From assembly GCF_988243305.1 (NCBI RefSeq), contig NZ_OZ547136.1: 64,000 bases of DNA; one strand, 5' to 3'. Numbering within the stretch: the first letter of the stretch is position 1; each line of letters begins with the position of its first letter. The notes beneath the pieces are model-generated. The model had not been told where the DNA came from and made no database searches. It saw nothing but the letters and a program-made list of their open reading frames with translations. The position numbers and the translations under genes were made by a program. Below are positions 1-50,252 of this stretch, piece after piece.

Positions 1-1
1 C

Positions 2-4633
<4,632 letters not shown>

Positions 4634-4640
<7 letters not shown>

Positions 4641-5245
4641 CAGAACAACAACGTCGCGAACTGGACTGGGAAAAAACCGACGGACTGATGCCGGTGATTG
4701 TGCAACACGCGGTATCCGGCGAAGTGTTAATGCTGGGCTATATGAACCCGGAAGCCTTAGACAAAACCATCGAAAGCGGCAAAGTCACCTTCTTCTCGCG
4801 CACTAAACAGCGACTGTGGACCAAAGGCGAAACGTCGGGCAATTTCCTCAACGTAGTAAATATTGCGCCGGACTGCGACAACGACACGCTACTGGTACTG
4901 GCGAATCCTATCGGACCAACCTGCCACAAAGGCACCAGCAGCTGCTTCGGCGACACCGCTCACCAATGGCTGTTCCTGTATCAACTGGAACAACTGCTCG
5001 CCGAACGCAAATCTGCCGACCCGGAAACCTCCTACACCGCCAAACTGTATGCCAGCGGCACCAAACGCATTGCGCAGAAAGTAGGTGAAGAAGGGGTGGA
5101 AACCGCACTGGCAGCGACGGTACATGACCGCTTTGAGCTGACCAACGAGGCATCTGACTTGATGTATCACCTGCTGGTGTTGTTGCAGGATCAGGATCTG
5201 GATTTAACAACGGTGATTGAGAACCTGCGTAAACGTCATCAGTGA
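4634..5245 (+). CDS. hisI: phosphoribosyl-AMP cyclohydrolase / phosphoribosyl-ATP pyrophosphatase
   Basis: 203 aa ORF, last gene of his operon. Confidence 0.93.
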
Positions 5246-5286
5246 GTTGCGGGGTAAGCGGATGCGATGTTGTCGTCGCATCCGGC

Positions 5287-5330
5287 AAAAAAAACGGGCA
5301 AGGTGTCACCACCCTGCCCATTTTCTTTAA
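5287..5330. terminator. bidirectional rho-independent terminator between convergent hisI and wzzB
   Basis: GC hairpin gggcaaggtgtcaccaccctgccc (about 5296-5319) flanked by an A-run upstream and a T-run downstream, so it is hairpin plus U-tract on either strand. Confidence 0.7.
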
Positions 5331-5341
5331 AACCGAAAAGA

Positions 5342-6319
5342 TTACTTCGCGTTGTAATTACGCAGAGCATTACGCCCCAACACAATCCCCGCGCCAACCA
5401 TGCCGCCCAGCAGCACCGCCAGAATCAAGGTAATTGCCTTTTTCGGGCTATCGCGACGAATAGGTAACGTCGGTTTCATCACATAACGGTAAGCATGAAT
5501 ATCAAGATCATCAACCTTTAAGTTTTCAATATCCAACAGGTTTTGACGTGTCTGATAGTAGTTTGGTGAGAACACCAACGGACGGGTCGCCTCATGCTTA
5601 ATCATCGACTCCAGCGCTTCGCTACCCAAAAGGAACAACGTATCTTGCGTCACATCTTCAGTCTGCTGAACCTGTGGCTTTGTCACCTGCGCCTGATTCG
5701 CATACTGCAACGCTTCCTGAATCTGACGGATACGCAGATCTTTCTGCTCCTGCGCAACTACTTCCTGCGTTCTTAAAGAGTCCTGCAAGTTTTTCCGTCC
5801 CAGAGCAATGTTGTCCTTGAGATCCTTTTCTAACTCTTGATTCACTTTATCGTCAACTTGCTGAATGTATTGGGCCAACTTCATTTGTGCGCCCTCTGCA
5901 GTTTGCCCAACATAAGAAACAGTTAATGGTAATTGCTGGTTCTTAACAGAAGGTTCGATGGTAAGTTTTTCTGGTTCTTCCTGATTATCCAGCGTTTCTG
6001 CTAATGCAGAGAAGGCAGAACTGAAGCGACCAATTAACGTCTCCTGCAAATCCGATACTTTCGGTGCAGCCTGACCATAGATAACATTCATGGCATTGTT
6101 ATAGCCAGCAATTTGCCCCACGTCGGGCTGAGTGATAATTGCTGTTGACGTCCATTTCTCCTTCGCTACTACCAAATATCCAATAGCCAGGGCAATAGCC
6201 ACAATGACGGAAATGATGATTGTCATCTTGCCACGCCACAACTGCACTAGTAAATCAATCAAATCAATCTGTTCCGGGTCATGGTTTTGCCCAGAAACAT
6301 TATTATTTTCTACTCTCAT
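5342..6319 (-). CDS. wzzB: O-antigen chain length determinant (polysaccharide co-polymerase)
   Basis: ORF 5342-6355; N- and C-terminal transmembrane segments; start placed at the Met of MRVENNN (6319) by recollection of the known protein start. Confidence 0.85.
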   Translation of the reverse strand: MRVENNNVSGQNHDPEQIDLIDLLVQLWRGKMTIIISVIVAIALAIGYLVVAKEKWTSTAIITQPDVGQIAGYNNAMNVIYGQAAPKVSDLQETLIGRFSSAFSALAETLDNQEEPEKLTIEPSVKNQQLPLTVSYVGQTAEGAQMKLAQYIQQVDDKVNQELEKDLKDNIALGRKNLQDSLRTQEVVAQEQKDLRIRQIQEALQYANQAQVTKPQVQQTEDVTQDTLFLLGSEALESMIKHEATRPLVFSPNYYQTRQNLLDIENLKVDDLDIHAYRYVMKPTLPIRRDSPKKAITLILAVLLGGMVGAGIVLGRNALRNYNAK

Positions 6320-7879: not shown

Positions 7880-9286
7880 TTAATCCAGCCATTCAGTATG
7901 GAACACACCTTCTTTATCAATGCGCTTATAAGTATGCGCACCGAAATAGTCACGCTGTGCCTGGATCAGGTTCGCAGGCAGAACAGCGGCACGGTAGCTA
8001 TCGTAATAGGCAACCGCAGCAGCGAAGGTCGGAACCGGGATACCGTTCTGTACTGCATAAGCAACGACATCACGCAGCGCCTGCTGGTAGTCATCGGCAA
8101 TTTGCTTGAAGTACGGAGCCAGCAGCAGGTTAGCGATCTGCGGATTTTCGGCATAAGCATCGGTGATTTTCTGCAAGAACTGCGCACGAATGATGCAACC
8201 AGCACGGAAAATCTTCGCGATTTCGCCGTAGTTCAGATCCCAGTTGTACTCTTCAGACGCTGCGCGCAGCTGAGAGAAACCCTGAGCGTAAGAAACGATT
8301 TTGCCCAGATACAGAGCACGACGAACTTTTTCGATGAACTCACCTTTGTCGCCAGCTGGCTGCGCTTGCGGGCCAGAGAGAACTTTAGATGCGGCAACAC
8401 GCTGCTCTTTCAGAGAAGAGATATAACGTGCAAACACAGACTCGGTAATCAGCGACAGCGGTTCTCCGAGATCAAGCGCGCTCTGGCTGGTCCATTTACC
8501 GGTACCTTTGTTAGCCGCTTCATCCAGGATCACATCAACCAGGTAGTTACCGTCTTCATCTTTTTTGGTGAAGATGTCTTTGGTGATGTCGATCAGGTAA
8601 CTACTCAGTTCACCGTTATTCCACTCGGTAAAGGTCTGTGCCAGTTCTTCGTTAGAGAGATTCAGGCCGCCTTTCAGGAGAGAATAGGCTTCAGCAATCA
8701 GTTGCATATCACCGTATTCAATACCGTTGTGAACCATCTTCACATAGTGACCCGCGCCATCAGCACCAATATAGGTAACGCACGGTTCGCCATCTTCAGC
8801 AACGGCGGCGATTTTGGTCAGGATCGGAGCAACCAGTTCATAGGCTTCTTTCTGCCCACCAGGCATGATGGAAGGCCCTTTCAGCGCCCCCTCTTCACCG
8901 CCGGAAACACCGGTACCGATGAAGTTAAAACCTTCGGCAGAAAGCTCACGGTTACGACGAATGGTGTCCTGGAAGAAGGTGTTACCACCATCAATGATGA
9001 TGTCACCTTTATCGAGGTATGGCTTGAGAGAATCAATAGCAGCATCCGTGCCTGCACCTGCTTTCACCATTAACAGGATGCGACGAGGCGTTTCCAGAGA
9101 TTCAACGAACTCTTTCACCGTATAGTAAGGAACCAGTTTCTTGCCTGGATTTTCGGCAATCACTTCTTCCGTCTTCTCACGGGAGCGGTTGAAAATAGAG
9201 ACGGTATAACCACGGCTTTCGATGTTGAGCGCAAGGTTGCGCCCCATCACTGCCATACCGACGACGCCGATCTGTTGCTTTGACAT
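7880..9286 (-). CDS. gnd: 6-phosphogluconate dehydrogenase, decarboxylating
   Basis: 468 aa ORF, N-terminal [16 protein letters not shown]-binding motif. Confidence 0.95.
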
Positions 9287-9448: not shown

Positions 9449-10819
9449 TTACTTATTCAGTAACTCAAGGATAAGTTTTGTCTTTTCTTCCATCAGCGGC
9501 ACATCACCGCGCGATTCCACATTCAGGCGCACCACCGGTTCGGTGTTGGAGGAGCGCAGGTTAAAGCGCCAGTCGGCAAAGGTCATGCTGATGCCATCGG
9601 TACGATCCACCGCCAGCGCCTCGCGGCTAAAGTGCTGTTCGACGCGGTTAATCGCCTCAACGGGTTGCGCCAGTTTGCTGTTGATCTCACCGCTTGCCGG
9701 AAACGCTGCCATCCGGTCGCGCACCAGTTCGCCCAGCGTTTTTCCTTTCAGGCACACCAGTTCGGCTACCAGCAGCCACGGGATCATGCCGCTGTCGCAG
9801 TAAGCGAAATCACGGAAGTAATGGTGAGCGCTCATTTCGCCACCATAGATGGCGTCTTCCTTGCGCATACGTTCTTTAATAAAGGCGTGTCCGGTTTTCG
9901 ACATCACCGGAGTGCCGCCCGCGGCGGTCACCACATCAACGGTATTCCAGGAGAGACGTGGATCGTGGATGATCTTCGCGCCGGGATTTTTTTCGAGGAA
10001 CGCTTCTGCCAGCAGGCCGACAATGTAATAGCCCTCGATAAACTGCCCTTTTTCGTCAAACAGGAAGCAGCGGTCAAAATCGCCATCAAAGGCAATGCCC
10101 ATATCCGCTCCGTGTTTGATGACCGCATTGCGGGTGTCGTCGCGACATTCCGGCAGCAGCGGATTAGGAATACCGTTGGGGAAATTGCCGTCCGGCGTGT
10201 TGTGTACTTTGATTAATTCCACCGGTGCGCCGAGGGCTTTAAATCGGGCTTCAATGGCGTCCACCACCGGACCCGCCGCGCCGTTCCCGGAGTTAATCAC
10301 CAGCTTGAGCGACGTGAGGTTTTTGACGTTGATATAACCGAACAGGTGCTCAACGTAAGCGTCACGCAGATTGATTTGTTGATAGCGACCGCGTTTGGTT
10401 TCATCGACGGGAGGAAAGTCGTTGGCTTCTGCCAGACGCTGGACATCGCGTAGTCCGGTATCACCGCTGATCGGGCGAGCCCCCTCGCGAACCAGCTTCA
10501 TGCCGTTATAATCCATCGGATTATGGCTGGCGGTGACTTCAATGCCGCCATCCACGCCGAGATGGAACGTGGCGAAATAGATTTCTTCGGTGCCGGACAT
10601 GCCAATATCCAGCACATCGACGCCCGCATCCTGTAAACCTTTCGCCAGCGCCAGTTTTAAGGTTTCGCTGGTGAGGCGGGCATCACCGCCTAACACAATG
10701 GTTTTCGGTTTGAGAAATTCGCCATAGGCGCGACCAATGCGCCACGCAATATCTTCATTCAGTTCTTCGCCTAATTTCCCGCGAATATCATAGGCTTTAA
10801 AGCAGGTTAATTTTTTCAT
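9449..10819 (-). CDS. manB: phosphomannomutase, O-antigen cluster copy
   Basis: 456 aa ORF; nearly identical over most of its length to the colanic acid copy at 31900-33270; diverges only in the last ~15 codons. Confidence 0.9.
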
Positions 10820-10843
10820 ATAAAAACCTTACCAATAATAAAA

Positions 10844-11602
10844 TTATTTATGCGCAAATAATTGCATTAGTTTTGATATTTTTCTGATAATGATAGCAAT
10901 TTTCCAATTTACATTATGGTTTTTCATAACTTCTACAATTTCCTTTGTACTTGATATCGCGTTATCAATTCTGGTACTTTCCCCACCCAATCTCATCTTT
11001 ACAAATACTTGAGGAACATAAATAACTTTAATATCATCACGTTTCAAAATCCTGACCATCTGATCATAGTCTGCAGCAATCCTATAGGATAAATCAAAAT
11101 ATCCATCGTCTTTATATAATTCCCTCCTCATATAGAAAGATGGATGCGGTGGTGCCCAGCCTAATGATAGCTTAGAACGTTTAAAAGGACCACTACGCCA
11201 GTATCGTTTGATTATATCAATTTGGTTTTTTTCGAAAAAAACCAAATCACCGTATACAACATCCGCTTTTGTCTCATGGAAACGGCTTACAATAGTTTCA
11301 ATAATATCAGGTCTTGCTAAAAGGTCATCAGAATGAACGAATCCAATAATATCTCCCGTAGATAAATTTATACCTTTATTTAAAGCATCATAGATACCGT
11401 TATCGCTTTCTGATAGACATTTGGTTACTCTTGTTGATACTTCGTTAATTAGTTTTAACGTATTATCTGTAGAACCACCATCAATAATTATATACTCTAT
11501 ATCTTTATAGGTTTGCAACTCTATTGACTCTAAAGTATCCCTTAAAGTCTTTTCACTATTATAAGTCACTGTAATAATACTGACTTTCATTTTAACATCC
11601 AA
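10844..11602 (-). CDS. glycosyltransferase, family 2-like
   Basis: 252 aa ORF; N-terminal SIITVTYN...DGGSTD motif typical of GT-A fold; AT-rich; start may be the internal Met at MKVSIIT. Confidence 0.75.
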   Translation of the reverse strand: MDVKMKVSIITVTYNSEKTLRDTLESIELQTYKDIEYIIIDGGSTDNTLKLINEVSTRVTKCLSESDNGIYDALNKGINLSTGDIIGFVHSDDLLARPDIIETIVSRFHETKADVVYGDLVFFEKNQIDIIKRYWRSGPFKRSKLSLGWAPPHPSFYMRRELYKDDGYFDLSYRIAADYDQMVRILKRDDIKVIYVPQVFVKMRLGGESTRIDNAISSTKEIVEVMKNHNVNWKIAIIIRKISKLMQLFAHK

Positions 11603-11673
11603 TAATAATCATAATTAAATAACGTCAGTACCGCATTACGAATAATAATGTTGCATTAGTATCCAGCATCATT

Positions 11674-13074
11674 TTAGATTCTAACAACATCATCTTCATC
11701 CAAGTAAACACCTGAACGTACCTCAATAATCTCCAAAGGGATCTTTCCTGGATTCTCAATAAAATGAGGTACACCTATTGGTATATAAGTTGATTCATTT
11801 TCAGAAACAAGAAATATTTCATCTTCATAATGGACTTTTGCTGTTCCAGAAACAACAATCCAATGCTCAGTACGATGGTAATGAATCTGTTTAGCAGTTT
11901 TATGTCCAGGATGAATAACGACATGTTTAACCTCAAATCGAGATCCTTCCGCTATAGAGTCATGACTGCCCCATGGCCTAAATATTTCACGATGCTGCAG
12001 ATATTCCGTACGGTTATTAACTTTAAGTTTTTCTACAATATTTTTTACCTGTTGAACTTTATCTTTATGCGCAACGAGAATAGCATCTTTAGTTTCAACA
12101 ACTACTAAATCTTTAACTCCTACTACACCAATTAATCTATGTTGTGAGTAAAGATAACTGTCAGAAGAATCATGAATTAATACATCTCCTCTAATTGCAT
12201 TTCCACTTTTATCTTTTCTGCTAATTTCCCATAATGCAGACCAAGAACCAACATCGCTCCAGTGGGCATTTAATGGAACTACCACAGCCTCTGTTGTTTT
12301 CTCCATAACAGCGTAATCAATGGATTCTTCAGGGCAACAACTAAATGAGTCATTATCTATACGGATAAAATCAAGATCTTGTGTAGAGGACTTCAATGCT
12401 TGTTGGCATATTTTTAGTATGTCTGGTCTAAATTTATTCAACTCATCAATAAACACAGAAGCCCTAAACATGAATATTCCACTATTCCAAAGATAATCTC
12501 CATCTTCAAGATATTTTTTGGCCACATCTAGCTCAGGCTTTTCAACAAAAGCAGAAACTTTAAAACCATATTCATTTAAATTTTCTCCGGTTTTTATATA
12601 GCCATATCCAGTTTCGGGTTTGGTTGGCACAATACCAAAAGTTACCAGCTTACCTTCCTCTGCAAATTCTTTTGCAGCCAATATTGACGATATAAAGCGC
12701 TTTTGGTCTTGTATTTCATGATCGGCTGCTAGTACAAGCAGTATTGGATCCTCACCTGATGAAATCGCTTTAAGAGCAGCAAGCGCAACTGCGGGGGCAG
12801 TATTACGACCTACCGGCTCTAGTAAAATGCCACTATTCGCTAAATTTACATTACGCATCTGTTCTGCAACGATAAAACGATGAACTTCATTACAAATAAC
12901 CAGAGCAGGACGATGTTCAACCCCTTCAAGCCTTCTTAAGGTCTCTTGTAGCATAGTCAAACGACTAGTTAACGACAGGAATTGCTTCGGATATAGTGTT
13001 CGAGAAAGTGGCCACAATCTAGTTCCAGAACCACCGGCCATTACAACAGGAAGTAGCATATAAATAACCTTCAC
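11674..13074 (-). CDS. manC: mannose-1-phosphate guanylyltransferase, O-antigen cluster copy
   Basis: 466 aa ORF; [19 protein letters not shown] nucleotidyltransferase motif; paralog of the colanic acid copy but divergent and AT-rich. Confidence 0.88.
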   Translation of the reverse strand: MKVIYMLLPVVMAGGSGTRLWPLSRTLYPKQFLSLTSRLTMLQETLRRLEGVEHRPALVICNEVHRFIVAEQMRNVNLANSGILLEPVGRNTAPAVALAALKAISSGEDPILLVLAADHEIQDQKRFISSILAAKEFAEEGKLVTFGIVPTKPETGYGYIKTGENLNEYGFKVSAFVEKPELDVAKKYLEDGDYLWNSGIFMFRASVFIDELNKFRPDILKICQQALKSSTQDLDFIRIDNDSFSCCPEESIDYAVMEKTTEAVVVPLNAHWSDVGSWSALWEISRKDKSGNAIRGDVLIHDSSDSYLYSQHRLIGVVGVKDLVVVETKDAILVAHKDKVQQVKNIVEKLKVNNRTEYLQHREIFRPWGSHDSIAEGSRFEVKHVVIHPGHKTAKQIHYHRTEHWIVVSGTAKVHYEDEIFLVSENESTYIPIGVPHFIENPGKIPLEIIEVRSGVYLDEDDVVRI

Positions 13075-13526
13075 TTAAAATAATTTTTTGTGTACTGATG
13101 AACTGAGGAATTAGCTAACAATTCGGCTATATCGAACCAATTGTAAGTACTATGTTGTAGTGTTGGATAGTTAATTTGATGTGGCATCAAACTAATCTCA
13201 TATCCGTGTACGACATAATGAGTTGAAAAACAAGTCCCAGAAAAATTGTCGCTGTAGAAATGTTCATAAATCCCAAGAAATTTTGCTTCATTAATGCTAA
13301 TTTGAACACCCAATTCTTCAAAAGTAACTCTTTTGAATGCGTTCTCGAAAGACTCATCTTTAAGAATCCGTCCCCCCGGCACAAACCAATAATTTTGTGC
13401 TGGACGATTAAGGCGCTGACCAAGCAGCGCCTTACCATCTTCGTTTCTTATAATAAGGTCTATCGAGATTAGTGGAGTATGTTCAACTATTGATTTAAAT
13501 AACTCTGTTTCTAATCTCTTGTTCAA
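13071..13526 (-). CDS. gmm: GDP-mannose mannosyl hydrolase (Nudix)
   Basis: 151 aa ORF, Nudix-like, between fcl and manC as in the colanic acid cluster. Confidence 0.8.
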   Translation of the reverse strand: MNKRLETELFKSIVEHTPLISIDLIIRNEDGKALLGQRLNRPAQNYWFVPGGRILKDESFENAFKRVTFEELGVQISINEAKFLGIYEHFYSDNFSGTCFSTHYVVHGYEISLMPHQINYPTLQHSTYNWFDIAELLANSSVHQYTKNYFK

Positions 13527-13528
13527 TA

Positions 13529-14494
13529 TTAACTCCTAAATGAGTCAAGATTATTTATAAACCATTTATATGTTAATTCTAGTCCTTGTTTTAAATTATA
13601 ACGATATTTCCAGCCCAAATTCTCAAGGCGTGTAACATCCATAAGTTTACGAGGCGAACCATCTGGTTTTGTTATATCAAAAACAATTTTTCCATCATAG
13701 CCAACAACTAAAGCCATTGTTTCTGCCATTTCACGTATGGAACAATCAACACCAGTACCTACGTTAATATGAGATAACATTGGTTGAGTATTTTTTTTAT
13801 AAATTTCATCATCAAGCTCCATCACATATACTGATGCAGCTGCCATATCATCAACATATAAAAACTCGCGTTTTGGAGTTCCCGTTCCCCAGACAACCAC
13901 TTCATTTAAACCAAGTTCCTTTGCTTCATGAAAACGCCGCATAAGCGCTGGAATTACATGTGAGTTATTGGGATGAAAATTATCATTCATACCATATAAG
14001 TTAGTAGGCATTACACTGCGATAATCACATCCATATTGGCGATTATAAGATTCACATAGCTTTATACCTGCTATTTTGGAAATAGCATAAGGCTCATTAG
14101 TAGGCTCAAGAGTTCCCGTCAAAAGTGCAGATTCTTTCATTGGCTGTTCTGCAAACTTTGGATAGATACAACTTGACCCTAAGAATAATAGTTTCTTTAT
14201 GCCCGCTTTATAAGATGAGTGAATAATATTGCTTTCAATGAGAAGGTTCTGATAAATAAATTCAGCTGGAAAAGTGTTATTAGCATGAATTCCTCCTACT
14301 TTTGCTGCTGCAAGGTAAACCTGATCTATTCTCTCTTGCTCAAAAAAACATTCAACATCCTTTTGAACTGTCAAATCGAGTTCTTTGTGAGTTTTGACAA
14401 TTAACTCAACATCATTACGTGCTAATAATTGACGACAAATAGCAGAACCAACCATCCCACGATGTCCAGCCACAAAAATTCGCTTCTTGGTCAT
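13529..14494 (-). CDS. fcl: GDP-L-fucose synthase
   Basis: 321 aa ORF; N-terminus [13 protein letters not shown] matches the colanic acid Fcl paralog. Confidence 0.88.
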
Positions 14495-14497
14495 ACT

Positions 14498-15619
14498 TTA
14501 ACGCTCCAAAGAGACTGCCACGTCAAAACCATGGCTTTTAAGAAGTGCATGCTGTTTAGCTTTTTCTAAATCACTAGCCACCATTTCTGCACACATTTCT
14601 TCAACTGTAATCTCTGGCTCCCAACCCAAGACATTTTTTGCTTTTGTTGGATCACCAAGAAGAGTTTCAACTTCTGCTGGTCGAAAATAACGAGGGTCAA
14701 CGCGAACAATAACATCACCAATATTAACACCAACGGCGCAATCTGATGTTTTATTTACAACCATTGCAACCTCATCAACACCAGTACCGGAAAACTCAAG
14801 TTCAAGTCCAACTTCTTTAGCAGACATACGGACAAATTCACGTACAGATATTTGTTTGCCAGTGGCAATAACAAAGTCTTCTGGCTGGTCTTGTTGAAGC
14901 ATCATCCATTGCATACGAACATAATCTTTCGCATGCCCCCAATCACGTAAAGAATCCATGTTGCCAAGATATAAGCATTTTTCTATTCCCTGCGAAATAT
15001 TAGCTATAGCACGTGTGATTTTACGTGTTACAAACGTTTCCCCACGACGTGGGGATTCATGATTGAACAAAATACCGTTGCATGCATACATTCCATAAGA
15101 CTCACGATAGTTTACAGTGATCCAATATGCATACAGTTTAGCTACGGCATAAGGTGAACGAGGATAGAACGGCGTTGCCTCTTTTTGTGGAACTTCCTGA
15201 ACTAATCCATACAATTCAGAGGTTGACGCCTGATAAAATCGGGTTTTTTTTTCTAATCCCAAAAAACGAATAGCTTCCAATAATCGTAAAGTACCTATAG
15301 CATCAACATCAGCTGTATATTCTGGGGATTCGAAGGAAACAGCTACGTGACTCATTGCTCCGAGGTTGTAAACTTCATCAGGTTGAACTTCAGATAATAT
15401 ACGAGTCAAATTAGAAGTATCTGTTAAGTCACCATAATGAAGGTGTAATTTTAAATTAATATTATGGGGATCTTGGTATATATGGTCAATACGTCCAGTA
15501 TTAAAAATAGAAGAACGTCGTTTTATTCCATGAACCTCGTAACCTTTATTTAGTAGAAACTCTGCCAAATATGAACCATCTTGACCAGTAATGCCAGTAA
15601 TTAATGCTTTCTTTGTCAT
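14498..15619 (-). CDS. gmd: GDP-mannose 4,6-dehydratase
   Basis: 373 aa ORF; [20 protein letters not shown]-terminus, highly similar protein to the colanic acid Gmd, but AT-rich DNA. Confidence 0.9.
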
Positions 15620-15629
15620 AAAATTATTC

Positions 15630-16664
15630 CTACAGTAGTTTCTTGTAAATATCGATAGTTTTGTCAGTACATTTTTTCCAAGAAAAACGTTGTGCTTGAG
15701 ATAAACCTTTCTTAATAATTTGATTTCGATTTCTATTTATAAATGATATACCATCAATAAGGTTGCTTATACTTAACTCATCCATCAAATAACCGGCGTC
15801 ACCTGCAACCTCTGGTATTGAGGAGTGATTATACGCAATGAATGGGCATCCTGCCCTCATTGCTTCTAAAAGAGGAATACCAAATCCTTCATAACTTGAC
15901 GGATAAATAAGAGAATGAGCTTGATTAAATTTTAGATTCAACTCTTGCTCAGTTAAATATGGATAATGAATATATCGATATGGTATATATTTATCAAGTA
16001 AAAATTTCTCAGCCTTTCCCAAAGGGCCTCCACCTACAATATATAGTTTGAACCCCTCTAATTTGTTTATTGCTTCAACTGCAAGTTGAAAGTTTTTATA
16101 TGCTTTTCTCGAACCAATAAAAAGCATGAAATTATCATCATCGTTATAATTAACGTTTTTTAATTCATAAAAATTATCAGACACCCCATTGTGAATGATT
16201 TCGATTTTACTTTCAGGTACTGGACAATACCTCAACAAATCATTGGCAGTATTTTCTGAAATGCAAATTATTTTATCACTGTTTTTTATAGCATTGTACT
16301 TCTGATGACAATGAACGTATTTACGTAAACCTGACATATATTTTTCATATGTAAAGTCATGTACTGTTGTTATGTTTTTATTTTTTTTGCCCTTACTAAA
16401 TCTATAATAACTAGAATGTAATAGAGAGTTTTCAGGAATATCAACAGCTCGATACCTTTCAAGAAAGCGAGGATATAGATTAATATAACGTCCAGGTTGT
16501 CGCACATCTTCACTTATAAATTGACAGCCTGTATTCTCATAGTTTAATATCGTATATTCAATATTTGTGGCTTTTATCGCTTTTATTATTTGATTATAAT
16601 AAACAGAAATGCCACCGTATGACTGGAGATTATATATAATACCATCCAAATATAACATAGGCAC
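15630..16664 (-). CDS. glycosyltransferase, GT-B fold (family 1/4-like)
   Basis: 344 aa ORF; C-terminal [19 protein letters not shown] motif typical of GT4 retaining transferases. Confidence 0.75.
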
Positions 16665-16673
16665 CTTTTATAT

Positions 16674-17687
16674 TTAATTGTATCCATCAGGATTTAGCGT
16701 ATGCCATTTCCACGCAGAAGAAAGCATTTCGGTCAAATCTCGCCTAGCCTTCCAGTCCAGTTCTTTTTCAGCTTTGGAAACATCCGCCCAACATTCTGCA
16801 ACATCGCCGCTTCGGTTAGGGCCAAAACTATAATTAATATTTTTCCCAATAATTGATTGAAATGTTTTTATTACTTCTAATACAGAATATCCTCTACCCG
16901 TACCTAAGTTATATATTTTATAATTTCCTCCTTTGCCAAACATTTTAAATGCTGAAATATGCCCCTCAGCTAAATCATTTACATGAATATAATCTCTGAT
17001 ACCAGTCCCATCAGGCGTTGGATAGTCATGACCATAAATAGTAAGCGCAGGTAATTTACCTAAAGCAACATTCATCATATATGGAACTAAGTTAGCAGGA
17101 GTACCTCTGGGATTTTCACCTATTAACCCAGACTCATGCGCCCCCACTGGATTAAAATATCGCAAAATAATCACATCTAATTTAGGGTTTGCCAGAGAAG
17201 CATCTTTTAATATAACCTCGGAGTAATATTTACTGGTCCCGTATGGATTCGTTGTTTCACCTATACGACATTTTTCATTGATAGGTATCGTTTCTGGAAG
17301 ACCGTACACCGTAGCAGATGAGCTAAAGATAATTTTATTTACATGAAAGATCTTCATTAACTCTAACAAATTTAAAAGCCCAACAATATTATTCATATAA
17401 TAACGTATAGGACTTTGAACTGATTCTGAGACAGACTTAAGGCCTGCAAAATGTAATACTTTAGAGAATGTGTGATTCGTGAATATAGTCTTTAATTCTT
17501 TTTTGTCCAATAAATCTACCTTATATGCTCTGATTTTCTTACCACTAAGCTTTGAAATGACTTTGATGATATCTTCTGTAGAATTAGAAAAATTATCTAT
17601 GATGACAACGTCTTCATTCTGCTCCAATAATGACAGAACAGTATGGGACCCAATATATCCAGCTCCACCCGTAACTAATATTGTCAT
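16674..17687 (-). CDS. NAD-dependent sugar-nucleotide 4-epimerase (GalE family)
   Basis: 337 aa ORF; VTGGAGYIGSH Rossmann motif and YGTSK catalytic motif; substrate not determinable from sequence. Confidence 0.8.
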   Translation of the reverse strand: MTILVTGGAGYIGSHTVLSLLEQNEDVVIIDNFSNSTEDIIKVISKLSGKKIRAYKVDLLDKKELKTIFTNHTFSKVLHFAGLKSVSESVQSPIRYYMNNIVGLLNLLELMKIFHVNKIIFSSSATVYGLPETIPINEKCRIGETTNPYGTSKYYSEVILKDASLANPKLDVIILRYFNPVGAHESGLIGENPRGTPANLVPYMMNVALGKLPALTIYGHDYPTPDGTGIRDYIHVNDLAEGHISAFKMFGKGGNYKIYNLGTGRGYSVLEVIKTFQSIIGKNINYSFGPNRSGDVAECWADVSKAEKELDWKARRDLTEMLSSAWKWHTLNPDGYN

Positions 17688-17696
17688 AAAAACACC

Positions 17697-19019
17697 TTAT
17701 TTGAATTTAAAAAAAACTATTTGCATCGATAATCTCAAGCATATGTATGCCATAAAGAACATACCTAATTCAAATATCATAGAAGAAAACTCTGAGCGTT
17801 GGAAATTGATAGATTGGGAAAGAAAAACAAGATAAAGAAAATAGTTGCTCCCAATTAACCTTTCCATTATATATGAATAACCACATAAAATGGCAGGAAA
17901 TATAATTACACCATAATAATTATAATTAATAAAAGCTTCTGTAAAAGGAGTAAATGCATATCCCATCATAAACTCTTGACTTGGCAAATAAACTTCCTTT
18001 GCAAATTGAATAGCTAATGTGTCTGGCTTTAATCCCATAAATAATTCTTTTGGTATAAAGTTTACAATGAACTGAAGATAGGATATACCAAAAAATTGAG
18101 TCTGATAATGTATCGAAGAATAATATTGAAGTGTAGATATAGGATAAATAAATTCACCCAAAGCATTCAATAATCTTATGCTTGATTCGACATTATAATC
18201 TGAACGATATATCCCAAAAAGTATAATCGTTGATACAAATAGAATACTGAACAACGCTACTTTTAATGGTATCTTAAATTTAGCTTTATAAAGTGATAGC
18301 AATACAGCCATAATAAAAGATAAAGCAATTTCTCGTCTTGAACCTACCAGCATTAAAGTATAAAAATATAAAAGCACAGGTATGCTGTATATTACGAAAC
18401 TATAATTTGTGAGACTTTTTTTTACTATCTTTAAATCAAGTAAAATCCAAAAATAAGCAATAACCACATATTTCAGATACCATCCACTTTGACTTACCGA
18501 ATTAATTAACTCTAGGCGAGTACTTTCGCCCAAAGCATTCAGAGAAAGATTTCTTGATTGATATAGAAAAAATAATGATATTAACCATGCTATGCATGAT
18601 GGAATAAATAGATTATAGTTATTGTCATAGTTATATTGTTTGTTTAAAAGAAATATATTGATACCGTGAGGCCTAATCAAACTAATCGATGCAACTATAC
18701 ACCAAACAGCAACACAATATAAGAATGAAGTGTTGATTATATTATTTTCAACATTAAATACATTAACACCAAAAAAATAATACAACAAAAAAGACACAAA
18801 AAAATAAAAAGGCGATAATATTATAAATATTCCATCAAACCATACCCACATTCGATTATATACAAAAAAAAGAATTGCAATTGTAAATATTACAGATAAA
18901 AACCAAATTAGGATAGCATCAATTTCAACTTTGACAGAAGTGCTCAATACAGCAATCATTATCAACCCAATAAAGCCATAAAATTGAGCCAATACCAGTT
19001 TGTATTGTTTATAAATCAT
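17697..19019 (-). CDS. wzy: putative O-antigen polymerase
   Basis: 440 aa, very hydrophobic multi-spanning ORF, very AT-rich, within O-antigen cluster; assignment by topology and context only. Confidence 0.6.
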   Translation of the reverse strand: MIYKQYKLVLAQFYGFIGLIMIAVLSTSVKVEIDAILIWFLSVIFTIAILFFVYNRMWVWFDGIFIILSPFYFFVSFLLYYFFGVNVFNVENNIINTSFLYCVAVWCIVASISLIRPHGINIFLLNKQYNYDNNYNLFIPSCIAWLISLFFLYQSRNLSLNALGESTRLELINSVSQSGWYLKYVVIAYFWILLDLKIVKKSLTNYSFVIYSIPVLLYFYTLMLVGSRREIALSFIMAVLLSLYKAKFKIPLKVALFSILFVSTIILFGIYRSDYNVESSIRLLNALGEFIYPISTLQYYSSIHYQTQFFGISYLQFIVNFIPKELFMGLKPDTLAIQFAKEVYLPSQEFMMGYAFTPFTEAFINYNYYGVIIFPAILCGYSYIMERLIGSNYFLYLVFLSQSINFQRSEFSSMIFELGMFFMAYICLRLSMQIVFFKFK

Positions 19020-19854
19020 ATTTTAACAATCCCGTCCAGAAACCGATTAATCTGTACATATATAATTTTTTTTGTTTTTTTAAAACGATACCAAAAAATG
19101 ATTTTACTGTGATCCTGAAAATTTCCAATAGTAATAAATAACGAGATTTCACTAAATACTTCTTTATCACGACACCATATCCAACTGCATATTTTCTGTA
19201 TTTTTCTGGTATCCCTTCACAATATAAATCATTATCGTGATAAACTCCAAATATAGGTTGAAAACATACTCTAAACCCAAGAGATTTCAGCCGAAAAAAT
19301 AACTCCGTTTCTTCGGATCCACCGAATAAAGTACCAACACCTAACCTTTCATCAAAATATATATTATCGAGTTTATGAGTAAAAATAAAAGTACCCACAC
19401 TTAGTGACGATTTAATTATTTGATTATAACCCATTTCCTTTTTAGTTTTAGGATAAACTCTATTGGCATAAGATTTCATTGTTTGAAAATCTAATACAGG
19501 AACTGAAAGAACGGTTTCTTTTTTGATATTTGATTGAATCACCTTCTCAAAAAAATCAGGAGCATAAAAAGCATCATCATCACAGAACCCAATAACATTA
19601 CCACTGCATAGTTTAAGCCCTTGATTACGAGCAGTTGAAAGTGGTACTTTATTTGATTTAACCAACTTGTATTTTATATTTTTTGCGTGTTTTAAAAATA
19701 ATTGCTCAATTATGATATCATCAGTCTGATCAATAAATATAATTTCTAGGTTTTTGTACGTACTGCTAGCTATGCTATTTAGCAGTCGTTCAATTTCTTT
19801 ATCCCTTCCACCTTGAGTTGTGCCTATCAAACTAATTTTATAAAAGTTATTCAT
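19009..19854 (-). CDS. putative glycosyltransferase
   Basis: 281 aa ORF in O-antigen cluster, GT2-like N-terminal region, overlaps wzy by 11 nt. Confidence 0.6.
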   Translation of the reverse strand: MNNFYKISLIGTTQGGRDKEIERLLNSIASSTYKNLEIIFIDQTDDIIIEQLFLKHAKNIKYKLVKSNKVPLSTARNQGLKLCSGNVIGFCDDDAFYAPDFFEKVIQSNIKKETVLSVPVLDFQTMKSYANRVYPKTKKEMGYNQIIKSSLSVGTFIFTHKLDNIYFDERLGVGTLFGGSEETELFFRLKSLGFRVCFQPIFGVYHDNDLYCEGIPEKYRKYAVGYGVVIKKYLVKSRYLLLLEIFRITVKSFFGIVLKKQKKLYMYRLIGFWTGLLKYDL

Positions 19855-19855
19855 A

Positions 19856-20776
19856 TTAATATCCTTTTTTTAAGATTGAATTAATCTTTATTTTACAATA
19901 ATAAGCAAATTTTCTAAGAAAAACACCATTTATATATTTAATCTTTACTCCTAACTTAGAAAAAATAATAAAATACACCTTAAAATAATAACAAATAGCA
20001 TTAAGAAAACGATGACTTGATTGCGGAAACAAAACCATCCCTAGCTCATCTTTATCGAGAATAATCCCCTGTTTTTTTAAATTACCAATGGCAATAGATA
20101 TGTGAATATCTGCTTGTATATGCTTTTTTATATTCGATATTTGATTTCCGTGATTTCGATAATAAAGCAAGGGTATATTTATATTACAGAATTTTCCGTA
20201 GTTTGCTAATCTACTCCAAAACTCATAATCTTCAGCATATTGGTAGCGTGGCTTATAATATAGGCATTCTTTTTTTATAATGCTGCTTCTCATCATTACA
20301 GTTGGATGAGCAAAACAACTGCCCACCAACAATCCTATTTTACAGGCTTCGTCTGAGTTAGGCATTTTTATAATTTTTCCGCTATTAACAGCTGACTCAA
20401 AAACTTTGATATTAGTTCCACAACACGCTATTTTTTGATCTGCATCCATTATTTCAACTTGTAATCTCAACCTTTCTCTGTGAGCAATATCATCAGCATC
20501 CATTCTAGCAATATACACTCCCGTAGCCATGTCTAATAATTCATTTAAAGTAGCTACTATCCCTTTATTTTCTCTATGCTTAATTTTGAATATCGCGGGA
20601 TATTTATTTTTATATTCATCAAGTATCTTTTGTGTACCATCCTGCGAGCCATCATTGATGATGATAATTTCAAATATTTTATATGTTTGTTCCAATATAC
20701 TGTCAATGCATGCGCCTAAGTATTTTTCAGCATTATATACCGGTATTATAACGGATACTTTGTTTTTATTAATCAT
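19856..20776 (-). CDS. glycosyltransferase, family 2
   Basis: 306 aa ORF; VSVIIPVYNAEKYL...INDGSQD motif. Confidence 0.78.
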   Translation of the reverse strand: MINKNKVSVIIPVYNAEKYLGACIDSILEQTYKIFEIIIINDGSQDGTQKILDEYKNKYPAIFKIKHRENKGIVATLNELLDMATGVYIARMDADDIAHRERLRLQVEIMDADQKIACCGTNIKVFESAVNSGKIIKMPNSDEACKIGLLVGSCFAHPTVMMRSSIIKKECLYYKPRYQYAEDYEFWSRLANYGKFCNINIPLLYYRNHGNQISNIKKHIQADIHISIAIGNLKKQGIILDKDELGMVLFPQSSHRFLNAICYYFKVYFIIFSKLGVKIKYINGVFLRKFAYYCKIKINSILKKGY

Positions 20777-20782
20777 AATATA

Positions 20783-22054
20783 TCATACTTTGTTTTTATT
20801 AAGCAGATAACAGATCGTTACTATTAAGGAGAACATATATAATGCTTGAGATATTATATACGCTTTAAAAACATAAGAAATTTGAGCATTTTCGACGTAG
20901 CATAACGAATACTTACTTAATATACAATATACAGACCATTGTAACACTTCTAACACTATATATTCTTTTACGAATGCTTTGCTAATCAGCAAATAACCAA
21001 GCACCCATGCAATTATCTTAAAAAAATCTCCAATTAGTTGATAAACTATAACATCAACAATAGGAACGAACTCGTGTGTAAATAGAATATTTACTATCAA
21101 ACCGCGAAATGTATACATCAAGACTGAAGATATACAAACTAACGGAACCAAATACAAATAACAAACTTTTATTTCATTAAGCAATTCTGAACGGTTAGAT
21201 GCACTTGAAAACCTTGGAAAGAAATATACCCCCAATGTAGTCGTAATTAACATCAAATAGACTGAACTTATTCTATTAACAGCATCCCACAACCCAGCAT
21301 ACTCAATATTTATTGATGTTATGATTTCATTTCTCACATATAACGTACTAACTGGCACTAATATAGCTGAAGTGACTGTCATTAAAGAAAAAATTATGAT
21401 CCGTTTTAATATTGAAATATCAATTCGATTGCAATTATTAACATAGTATTCTCTTAAATATTTTTTTGAGTAAAAAAAAGTCACAAAAAACAATATAGCT
21501 TGATTTGAAACTACAGCAATCAATGCTCCTCTCATACCAAAAGAGATTGTCAATATAAAGGCGTATATTGCAGATATTAAACTCGATATGATATTAATCC
21601 ATATATAATTTTTAATAAATGACAATCCATTTAACATAGAAAGAATTATATTATTCCATGCATATAAAATAACACTCCCTCCCAAGAAATAAATTGCGAT
21701 GCTTACTTCATCATTAGAATTGAAAAATTGTTCGATAATTATATTTTTAAAGATAATTATGATAACAGCGGTTATAAATCCCATTATAGTAGACAAATAA
21801 ATTGCATTAATCCAAAAACTCCAGATTTTTTCCTTATTACTATTCTTATACTCTGACGTATACTTAACAATACTCGTTGAAATAGCTTGTGATGGCGCAA
21901 CCATAGCTATATTAAGGATATTTTGGATTTGGCCAATAAGTGCATATCCAGACGTACCTAAATATATTGCGAATACTTTATTAAGTCCAAGTAGAGTTGC
22001 TATTTTGACAAATACAGAAAGGCCATTAAGAATAAAGACATTATATACTTTCAC
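20783..22054 (-). CDS. wzx: putative O-antigen flippase
   Basis: 423 aa multi-spanning membrane ORF, first gene after the JUMPstart element. Confidence 0.65.
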   Translation of the reverse strand: MKVYNVFILNGLSVFVKIATLLGLNKVFAIYLGTSGYALIGQIQNILNIAMVAPSQAISTSIVKYTSEYKNSNKEKIWSFWINAIYLSTIMGFITAVIIIIFKNIIIEQFFNSNDEVSIAIYFLGGSVILYAWNNIILSMLNGLSFIKNYIWINIISSLISAIYAFILTISFGMRGALIAVVSNQAILFFVTFFYSKKYLREYYVNNCNRIDISILKRIIIFSLMTVTSAILVPVSTLYVRNEIITSINIEYAGLWDAVNRISSVYLMLITTTLGVYFFPRFSSASNRSELLNEIKVCYLYLVPLVCISSVLMYTFRGLIVNILFTHEFVPIVDVIVYQLIGDFFKIIAWVLGYLLISKAFVKEYIVLEVLQWSVYCILSKYSLCYVENAQISYVFKAYIISQALYMFSLIVTICYLLNKNKV

Positions 22055-22116
22055 AGTTCACCTAACATATTAAGTAGGTTATGATAACAAAACTCATATT
22101 TAATTATACCATAAAT

Positions 22117-22160
22117 ATAAACCACGCTACCGCCCCTGGCTATACAGCTACCAGAGCACT
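22117..22160 (-). promoter_or_regulatory. JUMPstart element with ops site upstream of the O-antigen operon
   Basis: plus-strand cacgctaccgcc at 22123-22134 is the reverse complement of the ops sequence GGCGGTAGCGTG; same motif context recurs upstream of wza. Confidence 0.8.
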
Positions 22161-22407
22161 GCGTGTGTGTCTACAATGTAACGAGCGTTTCATGCTCGCA
22201 ATAAACAAAAAACCAAAAGCTAAATTATCTTACTAATCAGCTCTGAAAACAAGGAAATGTGTAAAAAAAGTCCTATTGCTGACTTGTTATTATCCCGAAT
22301 ATTTATAAATCAATAATAGCAGGAAGACTCGCAACAAGTTACTTTGCCTGCTAATCTTCACAACTATTACAGTCTTTTCGCATCTGTTGCATCCGATTCG
22401 ATTTTCA

Positions 22408-23304
22408 TTATTCCCTTAACAGCTTCTCAATCCCTTTACGGAACTTCGCCCCTTCTTTTAGGTTACGCAGTCCATACTTCACAAACGCTTGCATATAACC
22501 CATTTTTTTACCGCAGTCGTAGCTGTCACCGGTCATCAGCATGGCATCAACAGACTGTTTTTTCGCCAGTTCGGCAATAGCATCAGTCAGTTGGATACGT
22601 CCCCATGCACCTGGCTGAGTGCGTTCCAGTTCCGGCCAAATATCGGCAGAAAGCACATAACGGCCCACGGCCATGATGTCTGAGTCCAGCGTCTGCGGCT
22701 GATCCGGTTTTTCGATAAATTCAACAATGCGGCTGACTTTACCTTCGCGATCCAGCGGTTCTTTGGTCTGGATGACGGAGTATTCAGAGAGGTCACCCGG
22801 CATACGTTTTGCCAGCACCTGGCTACGGCCCGTTTCATTGAAGCGTGCAATCATGGCAGCAAGGTTGTAGCGTAGCGGGTCGGCGCTGGCGTCGTCGATC
22901 ACAACGTCTGGCAGCACCACGACAAATGGATTGTCACCAATGGCGGGTCGTGCACACAAAATGGAATGACCTAAACCTAAAGGTTCGCCCTGACGCACGT
23001 TCATAATAGTCACGCCCGGCGGGCAGATAGATTGCACTTCCGCCAGTAGTTGACGCTTCACGCGCTGCTCAAGGAGAGATTCTAATTCATAAGAGGTGTC
23101 GAAGTGGTTTTCGACCGCGTTCTTGGACGCGTGAGTTACCAGGAGGATTTCTTTGATCCCTGCAGCCACAATCTCGTCAACAATGTACTGAATCATTGGC
23201 TTGTCGACGATCGGTAGCATCTCTTTGGGAATCGCCTTAGTGGCAGGCAACATATGCATCCCAAGACCCGCTACCGGTATAACTGCTTTTAAATTCGTCA
23301 TCAT
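22408..23304 (-). CDS. galF: UTP-glucose-1-phosphate uridylyltransferase-like regulatory subunit
   Basis: 298 aa ORF, nucleotidyltransferase N-terminus, conserved position upstream of O-antigen cluster. Confidence 0.9.
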
Positions 23305-23542: not shown

Positions 23543-24538
23543 TTACTCAGAAACAAACGTTATGTCGTCTTTTTTGGCATGAACGAATTCATACTGCAGA
23601 GTTCGATCCAGACCTTGCGACAGCGTATACGGTGCCACAAAACCTGAAGAATGCACTTTCGTTGCGTCAAACTGTGTTGTTGCGCAGAATTTTTTCACGC
23701 GCACTGAGCTGACAGCGTATTTTTTGCCCGTAATTTTGCTCAGGATATCAAAACAATATCCACCCAGCATTCCTAGTGGGTAAGGCAAGTGCATAGAAGG
23801 GATCTTTTTGTTCAGGCTTTGTTCAACTTCAGCAACCAACTGGTTCATGTTCAGGTCTGGCTTATCAACGTAGTTATAAACCTCATAACCTGCGGCAACA
23901 TTCTTCAGTTTGTACTTGATAAACTCAACAATGTTTCCAACATAAGCCATGGACTTATAGTTAGTTCCTGCACCCACCATCATAAACTTGCCGCCAGCGA
24001 TCTGTTTCAGCAAGTTATAGACGTTACCGCGGTTGCGTTCACCGAAGATAACGGTAGGACGGATGATGGTTAATGAACGTTCTGTTGGTGCTTTGTTATA
24101 CCATTCACGCAGCACTTCCTCTGCCTGCCACTTACTTTTGCCGTAGTGGTTGAAAGGGTCGTGTGGATGGTTTTCGTCAGGGTTATGTTTGTTCAAACCA
24201 TAAACAGCAACGGAACTGGTAAAGATGATATTTTTAACGCCATTTTTTTCCATGGCCGCCAGCACATTGCGGGTACCCTGAACGTTGACATCATAATAGA
24301 GAGAAGTAGGGCTGACGTCATCGCGGTGTTCCGCTGCCAGTAGTACAACAGTGTCAAAACCAACTAATGCCTGGTCGAGTGCCTGTTGATCGCGAACATC
24401 GCCAATCTGTGTGATTTCTGGATAAAAGTGGCTCTGCTGTTTGTCCAGGTTCTTGATATTAAAGTCAGCAATTGCCGTTTCAAGTAGTCGGGTTCCTACG
24501 AATCCGGAAGCTCCTATGAGCAAAACGTTATCGTTCAT
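23543..24538 (-). CDS. gne: UDP-N-acetylglucosamine 4-epimerase-like protein
   Basis: 331 aa ORF; N-terminal LLIGASGFVG Rossmann motif; lies between wcaM and galF as recalled for gne in some E. coli lineages. Confidence 0.75.
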   Translation of the reverse strand: MNDNVLLIGASGFVGTRLLETAIADFNIKNLDKQQSHFYPEITQIGDVRDQQALDQALVGFDTVVLLAAEHRDDVSPTSLYYDVNVQGTRNVLAAMEKNGVKNIIFTSSVAVYGLNKHNPDENHPHDPFNHYGKSKWQAEEVLREWYNKAPTERSLTIIRPTVIFGERNRGNVYNLLKQIAGGKFMMVGAGTNYKSMAYVGNIVEFIKYKLKNVAAGYEVYNYVDKPDLNMNQLVAEVEQSLNKKIPSMHLPYPLGMLGGYCFDILSKITGKKYAVSSVRVKKFCATTQFDATKVHSSGFVAPYTLSQGLDRTLQYEFVHAKKDDITFVSE

Positions 24539-50245: not shown

Positions 50246-50252
50246 TGGTAAA

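Follow-up and report, generated by a model that had tools for sequence, protein, structure and literature searches.

An O-antigen gene cluster matching that of Escherichia coli O125, with a predicted GT2-family fucosyltransferase, WdaG

The window that we analyzed is a 64,000-nucleotide stretch of contig NZ_OZ547136.1 from NCBI RefSeq assembly GCF_988243305.1. It contains his-side flanks, an O-antigen cluster (positions 9449 to 22160), the wca cluster, and yeg genes. We found that all 12 open reading frames (ORFs) between gnd and galF are intact, lie on the minus strand, have no internal stops, and have the coordinates noted in a first-pass annotation of this DNA. From the gnd side, the gene order is manB, a GT2 gene, manC, gmm, fcl, gmd, a GT4 gene, a galE-like gene, wzy, two further GT2 genes, and wzx (Table 1). 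The ORFs and searches with NCBIfam, Pfam, and Rfam agreed with the gene content, order, strand, and JUMPstart/ops element described in that annotation. NCBIfam also confirmed the flanking genes gnd, galF, ugd, wzzB, and wcaM. Using Pfam, we placed three of the four transferases in GT2 (PF00535) and one in GT4 (PF00534 plus PF13439). The locus carries wzx and wzy with no wzm or wzt, lies between galF and gnd, and has JUMPstart/ops upstream, as is characteristic of the Wzx/Wzy-dependent loci of Enterobacteriaceae. The gene families thus confirm the earlier description of a Wzx/Wzy-dependent O-antigen cluster with a GDP-L-fucose pathway and four transferases. The GC content is 28 to 39% over 10.8 to 22 kb versus about 51% in gnd and galF. 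The manB gene is a high-GC copy (GC, 0.543) with 94.6% nucleotide identity to the colanic-acid cpsG gene at 31900 to 33270.

Table 1. Features of the O-antigen cluster and associated flanking genes, in window coordinates.
Feature	Position	Strand	Evidence or assignment
manB (phosphomannomutase)	9449..10819	-	NCBIfam PRK15414, CpsG subfamily, 1048 bits
wdaG, 248-aa GT2	10844..11590	-	Pfam PF00535; predicted alpha-1,3-L-fucosyltransferase on GalNAc-PP-Und
manC (mannose-1-phosphate guanylyltransferase / PMI)	11674..13059	-	TIGR01479, 741 bits; RefSeq start
gmm (GDP-mannose mannosyl hydrolase, Nudix)	13071..13526	-	NF011963, 194 bits
fcl (GDP-L-fucose synthase)	13529..14494	-	NF047922, 538 bits
gmd (GDP-mannose 4,6-dehydratase)	14498..15619	-	TIGR01472, 584 bits
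wdaF, GT4 (retaining)	15630..16658	-	Pfam PF00534 + PF13439; EX7E motif at residue 257
gne, GalE-family UDP-hexose 4-epimerase	16674..17687	-	TIGR01179, 430 bits; Cys299
wzy (O125 O-antigen polymerase)	17697..19019	-	439/440 aa identical to NCTC8623 protein
wetE, GT2	19009..19854	-	Pfam PF00535; proposed beta-1,2-GalNAc transferase on Man
wetD, GT2	19856..20776	-	Pfam PF00535, 131 bits; proposed beta-1,3-galactosyltransferase, side branch
wzx (O125 O-unit flippase), GTG start	20783..22054	-	423/423 aa identical to NCTC8623 protein; WzxE-like, 144 bits (full-length match)
JUMPstart + ops	22123..22161	-	Rfam RF01707
gnu (Z3206-type Und-PP-GlcNAc 4-epimerase)	23543..24538	-	RefSeq name in O125 genomes; SDR-family matches
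wzzB (O-antigen chain-length regulator), flanking, acts with Wzy	5342..6319	-	NF012015, 609 bits; RefSeq annotation

The JUMPstart element matched its Rfam model with 52.2 bits (E = 4e-11; gathering score, 35). We read the ops sequence, GGCGGTAG, directly at positions 22127 to 22134, and the ops pattern occurs twice in the window versus 0.13 times expected. By its sequence, the JUMPstart/ops element is the predicted RfaH-dependent antitermination site of the operon. When the spacers galF-wzx and gnd-manB were scanned for promoter and terminator consensus sequences, the matches did not rise above chance level. For Wzy, the TIGR04370 family model scored 33.5 bits versus a cutoff of 40, and a Pfam search returned no match; a hydropathy scan revealed about 10 hydrophobic segments. 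Gne has Cys299 at the gatekeeper position, where K-12 GalE has Tyr299. The 1LRK and 1LRL chains, which carry Cys at 299, gave Gne scores above those of the other E. coli GalE chains. In a Y299C study, a small residue in place of Tyr299 reportedly opened the GalE site to UDP-GalNAc. Gne likely supplies UDP-GalNAc. We also noted that gnu, which is needed for a GalNAc-initiated unit, lies outside the region that the first-pass annotation covered and was overlooked there.

We compared the cluster with 5,426 complete genomes by megablast and found a 12,952-nt block that is 99.7 to 99.9% identical over its full length in seven of them. In six of these genomes, the match is a single colinear piece that spans all 12,952 nt (100%; 99.9% identity), and the annotation tables are identical. 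In all seven matching E. coli genomes, wzx and wzy are annotated as "O125 family," and these genomes include NCTC8623, a listed O125 EPEC strain, and one designated 'O125ac:K+:H10'. From galF to gnd, the window agrees with the O125 reference genomes in both gene content and gene order. Relative to NCTC8623, there are 12 nucleotide differences in the cluster and six amino acid changes, in manB, gmd, wdaF, wzy, and wetD; a T run in wetE is T9 in NCTC8623 and T8 in the window. O125ac strain C 236-04A differs by 1 nt in wzx and 3 nt in wzy; in this strain, but not in the window, a 1.2-kb IS5-family element is inserted upstream of wzx. For wzx, the threshold for an O125 allele was an identity of at least 95 to 98% to the reference. 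Since neither Wzx nor Wzy matched a serogroup-specific model in the NCBIfam searches, we base the assignment on identity to annotated genomes at both the nucleotide and the protein levels. We conclude, with a probability of roughly 0.93, that the region is the O-antigen cluster of E. coli O125 (O125ab/O125ac), a single RfaH/JUMPstart-controlled operon of the Wzx/Wzy-dependent type. O125 is a classical EPEC- and EAEC-associated serogroup. Its reference cluster is described in Iguchi 2015, DebRoy 2016, and Furevi 2022.

Part of this cluster is also found in O11. We found that O11 shares the manB-wdaG-manC-gmm-fcl-gmd block at 97 to 100% amino acid identity (about 98% by megablast), with WdaG 99.6% identical, and that the shared block ends just upstream of the gmd start, at about position 15622 (megablast query positions 1 to 6174). 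Beyond it, O11 has a GT4 49% identical to WdaF and a GalE-like gene (51%) in the same positions as in O125. In contrast, the O11 Wzx and Wzy proteins are unrelated to those of O125 (no blastp match), the distal transferases differ, and O11 carries a second WrtF-like GT2 gene adjoining wzx.

A partial match to such a shared module assigns no serogroup by itself, and the likeness to O125 might have been confined to the sugar-pathway half of a new or hybrid serogroup with an undescribed O antigen. We found instead that the serogroup-specific half is near-identical to O125 too (wzx and wzy differ from those of NCTC8623 by 0 and 1 nt, respectively) and that the gene order is the same over the full length in the seven genomes. 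We therefore rejected a novel serogroup on the basis of the full-length 99.9% identity to O125 and give this reading almost no credence. The first-pass annotation had left the serogroup unassigned; the cluster matches that of the O125 reference with 99.9% identity. That annotation also singled out the locus as the part of the window most likely to be unusual and stated that Wzx and Wzy essentially identical to those of a characterized serogroup of known structure would make it ordinary. This is what we found: because Wzx is identical and Wzy nearly identical to the O125 proteins, the locus is real but ordinary, and its structure and gene assignments are already published. An O125 cluster could also be intact and yet silent in a rough strain, owing to defects elsewhere or in regulation, and related O125 and O11 genomes do carry IS insertions in or adjoining the cluster. 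Here, the cluster is free of IS elements, and the 12 ORFs and the JUMPstart/ops element are all intact. A silent cluster is thus improbable, and we would expect this one to be expressed.

The published O125ac repeat is the pentasaccharide ->4)[beta-Gal-(1->3)]-beta-GalNAc-(1->2)-alpha-Man-(1->3)-alpha-L-Fuc-(1->3)-alpha-GalNAc-(1-> (Furevi 2022, PMC9680116), which bears out the earlier expectation of an O unit of about five sugars that includes L-fucose. O125ab has one additional glucose, alpha-Glc on Man, for which a gtr system outside the cluster was proposed (Furevi 2022, PMC9680116). The O125ab and O125ac clusters are 98 to 99.9% identical (PMC4732683), and their sequences do not separate the two subgroups. 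We looked for gtr genes to tell the two apart and found none in the 64-kb window. The names wetD, wetE, wdaF, and wdaG, their GT families (2, 2, 4, and 2), and their proposed functions are published, and the role of Gnu, encoded beyond galF, for GalNAc as the first sugar is stated in the same paper (PMC9680116).

According to this model, WecA, which is encoded elsewhere, would form Und-PP-GlcNAc, and Gnu would epimerize it to Und-PP-GalNAc. ManB and ManC would produce GDP-Man, from which Gmd and Fcl would then make GDP-L-Fuc. WdaG, as an inverting GT2 of the WrtF/WbdO/WcaE type, would add alpha-1,3-Fuc. The retaining GT4 WdaF, a proposed alpha-1,3-mannosyltransferase acting on Fuc (PMC9680116), would follow with alpha-1,3-Man. 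WetE would add beta-1,2-GalNAc, with UDP-GalNAc from the Cys299 epimerase Gne, and WetD would add the beta-1,3-Gal branch. The unit would be flipped by Wzx and polymerized by Wzy, with the chain length set by WzzB.

None of the four transferases has the GT11 domain PF01531 in Pfam, and we found no HxRRxD motif in them or in the six frames of positions 9449 to 22160. GT11 alpha-1,2-fucosyltransferases, such as WbsJ of O128 and WbiQ of O127, also use GDP-L-Fuc in O-antigen synthesis; the O125 polymer has no Fuc-alpha-1,2-Gal linkage (PMC9680116). The first-pass annotation had likewise noted the absence of HxRRxD and suggested a fucosyltransferase of a different family, and this suggestion holds up, with only GT2 and GT4 found by Pfam and with WdaG in a GT2 clade. 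The best PDB relative of WdaG is WrtF, a GT2 alpha-L-fucosyltransferase of R. tropici (PDB 9OMH; E = 7e-25; 100 bits over 205 aa). WdaG is also 30% identical to WbdO of E. coli O157 over 246 aa (E = 1e-24) and 29% identical to WcaE of the colanic acid pathway (E = 2e-16). Its identity to each of the three is 29 to 31% over about 190 to 246 aa, and its length is like that of WbdO and WcaE. WdaG shares with them the nucleotide-binding signature SE.D.GIYDA.NKG, and it keeps D63 (the guanine-binding Asp), GIYDA, D89, H149, and D174 (the general-base Asp). These alignments place WdaG with WrtF, WbdO, and WcaE in a clade of GT2 (GT-A fold) fucosyltransferases, of which Bf4306 and GtfD are further members.

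WdaG also departs from the other members of this clade. The residues described for the clade are, in WrtF numbering, Asp66, His142, Asn143, Asp167, and Phe191 (F/Y) (PMC12595478). We found that Asp66, His142, and Asp167 correspond to D63, H149, and D174 of WdaG, whereas Asn143 and Phe191 correspond to P150 and M199. WcaE, when aligned, also lacks Asn at the Asn143 position, where it has Gln. The 'DxD' region of WdaG reads HSDD, not GADD or N(A/S)GD. WdaG is predicted to form an alpha-1,3 linkage to GalNAc-PP-Und, in contrast to the alpha-1,4 linkage to Glc given for the group of WrtF, WbdO, and WcaE. It appears fairly likely that WdaG-type 248-aa GT2s represent an 'HSDD' subgroup of this recently defined clade with a new specificity, alpha-1,3 onto GalNAc-PP-undecaprenol. 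In a chemical-synthesis paper, whose text leaves out the position of the Man-to-Fuc linkage, the O11 repeat was synthesized as GalNAc <- alpha-L-Fuc <- D-Man, and we infer the O11 reducing-end sequence from that paper. Both alpha-L-Fuc-(1->3)-GalNAc and WdaG would then be common to O125 and O11, which indirectly supports fucosyl transfer by WdaG.

Of the five residues described as common to GT2 fucosyltransferases, WdaG has only three, which would fit another arrangement, in which WdaF, WetD, or WetE is the fucosyltransferase and WdaG transfers another sugar. For WdaF, a retaining GT4 using GDP-beta-L-Fuc would yield beta-Fuc and not the alpha-Fuc of the polymer (PMC9680116). For WetD and WetE, we found that full-length alignment with WrtF, WbdO, and WcaE is confined to WdaG; WetD aligns with WrtF across its N-terminal 90 aa only, and WetE barely matches it. 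Consistently with this, WcaE as a query finds WdaG and neither WetD nor WetE. In at least three further cluster types, manC and manB also flank a homologous GT2 gene, which there travels with GDP-Fuc genes. We consider it very unlikely that another of the transferases is the fucosyltransferase and predict that WdaG is the O125/O11 fucosyltransferase, which would transfer alpha-1,3-Fuc onto GalNAc-PP-Und. The assignments of WetE as a beta-1,2-GalNAc transferase acting on Man and of WetD as the beta-1,3-galactosyltransferase for the side branch were proposed solely by the reverse-gene-order argument (PMC9680116), and this rule holds in only 39% of clusters (review). Both enzymes would be inverting GT2s making beta linkages, and PDB searches with WetD, WetE, and WdaF returned only generic GT2 and GT4 relatives, which do not settle donor specificity. 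The published roles might thus be swapped, with WetD as the GalNAc and WetE as the Gal transferase. The other two transferases do obey the inverse order (the last-encoded, WdaG, would be the first to act, and the third-encoded, WdaF, the second), and we regard a swap as possible and the published roles as the better candidates.

The value of this analysis is in annotation: the strain is assigned to O125, and there is no need for more discovery work on the locus. As a by-product, the proposal, already in print, of WdaG as the O125/O11 fucosyltransferase gains independent evidence from sequence. The support comes from homology to WrtF (structure) and WbdO (biochemistry) and from coinheritance with GDP-fucose genes. 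The function of WdaG was already proposed in print for O125, and only a definition of the subgroup and biochemical confirmation would be new. Liu et al. 2020 do not use the names 'wdaG' and 'wetD' in their main text. WdaG would be a suitable E. coli enzyme for studies of GT-A fucosyltransferases. Like O125 and O11, at least two further O-antigen clusters of E. coli carry a gene of the WdaG type in the interval from manC to manB.

We searched 9449-22400 by megablast against 5,426 complete E. coli genomes and found all 12,952 nt as a single colinear piece, at 99.7 to 99.9% identity, in seven of them. RefSeq labels the wzx and wzy genes of all seven "O125 family," and the serogroup is given directly for two: NCTC8623, which is listed as an O125 EPEC strain (PMC5704137), and C 236-04A, deposited as O125ac:K+:H10. 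A base-by-base comparison found 12 differences from NCTC8623 and 43 from the O125ac strain, 24 of the latter in manB and one being a 1.2-kb insertion sequence (IS) in the reference. Wzx matches that of NCTC8623 at 423/423 residues and Wzy at 439/440, exceeding by a wide margin the identity of at least 95% to one serogroup proposed for assignment. Therefore, the locus, which the first-pass annotation had left without a serogroup, is the known E. coli O125 O-antigen gene cluster. The expectation that it would be the part of the window most likely to be unusual is not supported, since its polysaccharide structure and gene assignments are published. The O125ab and O125ac clusters are 98 to 99.9% identical, and their merger has been proposed (DebRoy et al., PMC4732683).

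The cluster is real and was rightly described beforehand: its gene content and layout were borne out in every detail by the ORF list (6 to 26 kb), NCBIfam, Pfam, and Rfam. From 9449 to 22054, with gnd and galF on either side, there are 12 closely packed minus-strand ORFs, none with an internal stop. GC content drops to 28 to 39% over the cluster, manB excepted. Family-model support was weak for the putative Wzy (TIGR04370, 33.5 bits; cut-off, 40), which has no domain match in Pfam and about 10 hydrophobic segments. The JUMPstart sequence (Rfam RF01707, 52.2 bits; gathering score, 35) is a textbook element in the spacer upstream of the cluster. NCBIfam also identified the neighbors Gnd, Ugd, WzzB, GalF, and WcaM.

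Features of the O125 locus and related elements in the window
Feature	Position	Strand	Family match	Bits
gnd	7880-9286		NCBIfam	
manB	9449-10819	-	NCBIfam, CpsG subfamily	1048
wdaG	10844-11590	-	GT2, Pfam PF00535	
manC		-	NCBIfam	741
gmm		-	NCBIfam	194
fcl		-	NCBIfam	538
gmd		-	NCBIfam	584
wdaF	15630-16658	-	GT4, Pfam PF00534 + PF13439	
gne (GalE family)	16674-17687	-	NCBIfam	430
wzy	17697-19019	-		
wetE	19009-19854	-	GT2, Pfam PF00535	
wetD	19856-20776	-	GT2, Pfam PF00535	
wzx	20783-22054	-	NCBIfam, WzxE-like flippase, full length	144
JUMPstart	22123-22161	-	Rfam RF01707	52.2
ops octamer	22127-22134			
galF	22408-23304		NCBIfam	
gnu	23543-24538			
cpsG (colanic acid)	31900-33270			
Second ops/JUMPstart core	47898-47909	-		
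asmA-yegH gap	49961-50253			

The earlier prediction that the O unit has about five sugars, L-fucose among them, was right and already in print. The O125ac repeat is ->4)[beta-D-Gal-(1->3)]-beta-D-GalNAc-(1->2)-alpha-D-Man-(1->3)-alpha-L-Fuc-(1->3)-alpha-D-GalNAc-(1-> (Furevi, Udekwu, Widmalm, Glycobiology 2022, PMC9680116). The same study confirmed that O125ab (Kjellberg 1996) carries an additional alpha-Glc at O3 of Man, and it speculated that a Gtr system encoded elsewhere adds this glucose. We found no gtr genes in the window, the rest of which consists of the colanic-acid cluster and yeg genes. The authors of PMC9680116 described manBC and two 4-epimerases, taken as gnu and gne, and named the transferases wetD, wetE, wdaF, and wdaG (GT2, GT2, GT4, and GT2), proposing that they transfer Gal, GalNAc, Man, and Fuc, respectively. 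These assignments combined inverting/retaining arguments with the inverse gene-order rule. The proposed order of WetD and WetE stands on that rule, which is valid for 39% of clusters according to a review.

As the first-pass annotation had noted, the transferases lack a GT11-type motif. HxRRxD was absent from all four and from every frame of the cluster, and Pfam found no GT11 domain among the four, which it placed as three GT2 and one GT4. This fits the O125 structure, because there is no Fuc-alpha-1,2-Gal linkage in it. Independent evidence of several kinds favors WdaG, a GT2 of 248 aa encoded between manB and manC, as the predicted fucosyltransferase. Its closest solved relative is PDB 9OMH (E 7e-25, residues 3 to 212). 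This is WrtF of Rhizobium tropici, which was described in 2025 as the first GT-A-fold (GT2) L-fucosyltransferase to be structurally characterized (PMC12595478). The same paper groups it with WbdO of E. coli O157, for which there is biochemical evidence; with WcaE, for which there are knockout data; and with Bf4306 and GtfD. WdaG shares 30% identity with WbdO of the Sakai genome over 246 aa (E 1e-24) and 29% with the window's own WcaE, and all three proteins have 248 aa. An alignment of seven sequences showed no variation at the Asp that binds guanine (WrtF Asp66, WdaG D63), in the GIYDA.NKG stretch, or at Asp92 (D89), His142 (H149), and Asp167 (D174), the general base. Of the five residues that PMC12595478 gives as shared, two are replaced in WdaG (Asn143 by Pro and Phe191 by Met), and its DxD equivalent is HSDD.

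WetD and WetE, the other GT2s of the cluster, do not fit this clade. The match of WetD to WrtF is confined to 90 generic residues at the N terminus, that of WetE is slight, and WcaE as the query matched neither. A distant blastn search found wdaG matches in 228 of the 5,426 genomes. The same gmd-fcl-gmm-manC-GT2-manB arrangement recurs in two more cluster types, in which the GT2 is a 248-aa homologue of WdaG (70% and 51% identical). Traveling with the donor-sugar pathway is the behavior expected of the fucosyltransferase. Only the link of WdaG to this recently defined GT-A clade is mildly new, and it backs what had already been proposed in print.

In the GalE-like protein, Cys299 takes the place of Tyr299 of K-12 GalE. 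Its best E. coli PDB match is the 1LRK/1LRL sequence, which also has Cys at that site and which we take to be the GalE Y299C mutant with gained UDP-GalNAc activity. It would fit as a putative Gne, supplying UDP-GalNAc for the internal beta-GalNAc. Upstream of galF lies a gene whose annotation in the O125 genomes is gnu, the Und-PP-GlcNAc 4-epimerase. Gnu fits with GalNAc as the first sugar, and the gene belongs functionally to the O125 system, though it lies outside the coordinates first assigned to the cluster.

The first 6,174 nt of the query span manB through gmd, with wdaG among them, and are found at ~98% identity in many other genomes; the two inspected carry O11-family wzx and wzy. WdaG is 99.6% identical between O11 and O125, the next GT4 and the GalE-like protein are 49% and 51% identical, and the two serogroups have unrelated Wzx and Wzy proteins. 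The reducing-end trisaccharide is of the same type in both, matching the shared WdaG and homologous GT4. In the reported synthesis of the O11 repeat, GalNAc was followed by a 1,2-cis (alpha) L-fucosyl residue and then D-mannose, the acceptor being a 4,6-benzylidene-protected GalN3 with O3 free (PMC4906483). The nucleotide identity (~98% over manB-wdaG-manC-gmm-fcl-gmd) ends at the gmd start, and the gmd/wdaF junction (~15620-15630; 15171-15182 in the O11 cluster, L003) is a sharp mosaic boundary within a 10-nt intergenic spacer. O11 has a second WrtF/WcaE-like GT2 adjoining wzx (L003 19596-20321; 93 bits against WrtF, 36% identity with WdaG, and an NADD motif) and therefore may encode two GT2 fucosyltransferase-type enzymes.

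We also compared manB with colanic-acid cpsG, ~22 kb away, and found 94.6% nucleotide and 96.5% amino acid identity; for the remaining GDP-Fuc paralogue pairs, nucleotide identity is only 57 to 71%. GC content is 54% in manB and 35 to 39% in the other O-cluster GDP-Fuc gene copies. The likeness of manB and cpsG looks like gene conversion between both copies.

Several smaller differences were seen among related genomes. The 3' end of wetE has a T8 run (19065-19072), as in other O125 genomes; the NCTC8623 assembly has T9 (L001 ~14118), which frameshifts the last 17 codons and could be either a sequencing error in the homopolymer or a genuine slippage site. Between asmA and yegH, AH25, the best-matching O125 genome, encodes a RelE/ParE toxin paired with an HTH antitoxin (L005 13464-14210). 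This module appears to be missing from the window, because the asmA-yegH gap is only ~290 nt, and the window therefore does not come from AH25.

The colanic-acid operon also has an exact ops/JUMPstart core, GGCGGTAGCGTG, at its head, upstream of wza. The window thus has two RfaH-type elements, as well as two complete GDP-L-fucose pathways. The IS of C 236-04A is a 1.2-kb IS5-family (ISKpn26) element located a few bases 5' of wzx, where it separates the start codon from JUMPstart/ops (L002 15765-16745; equivalent to ~22060), and is absent from the window. It could alter O-antigen expression in that strain. In ES8, an O11 frog-farm isolate, wzy is truncated by an IS1 insertion (L004 18470-20376), a further case of IS disruption among related clusters.
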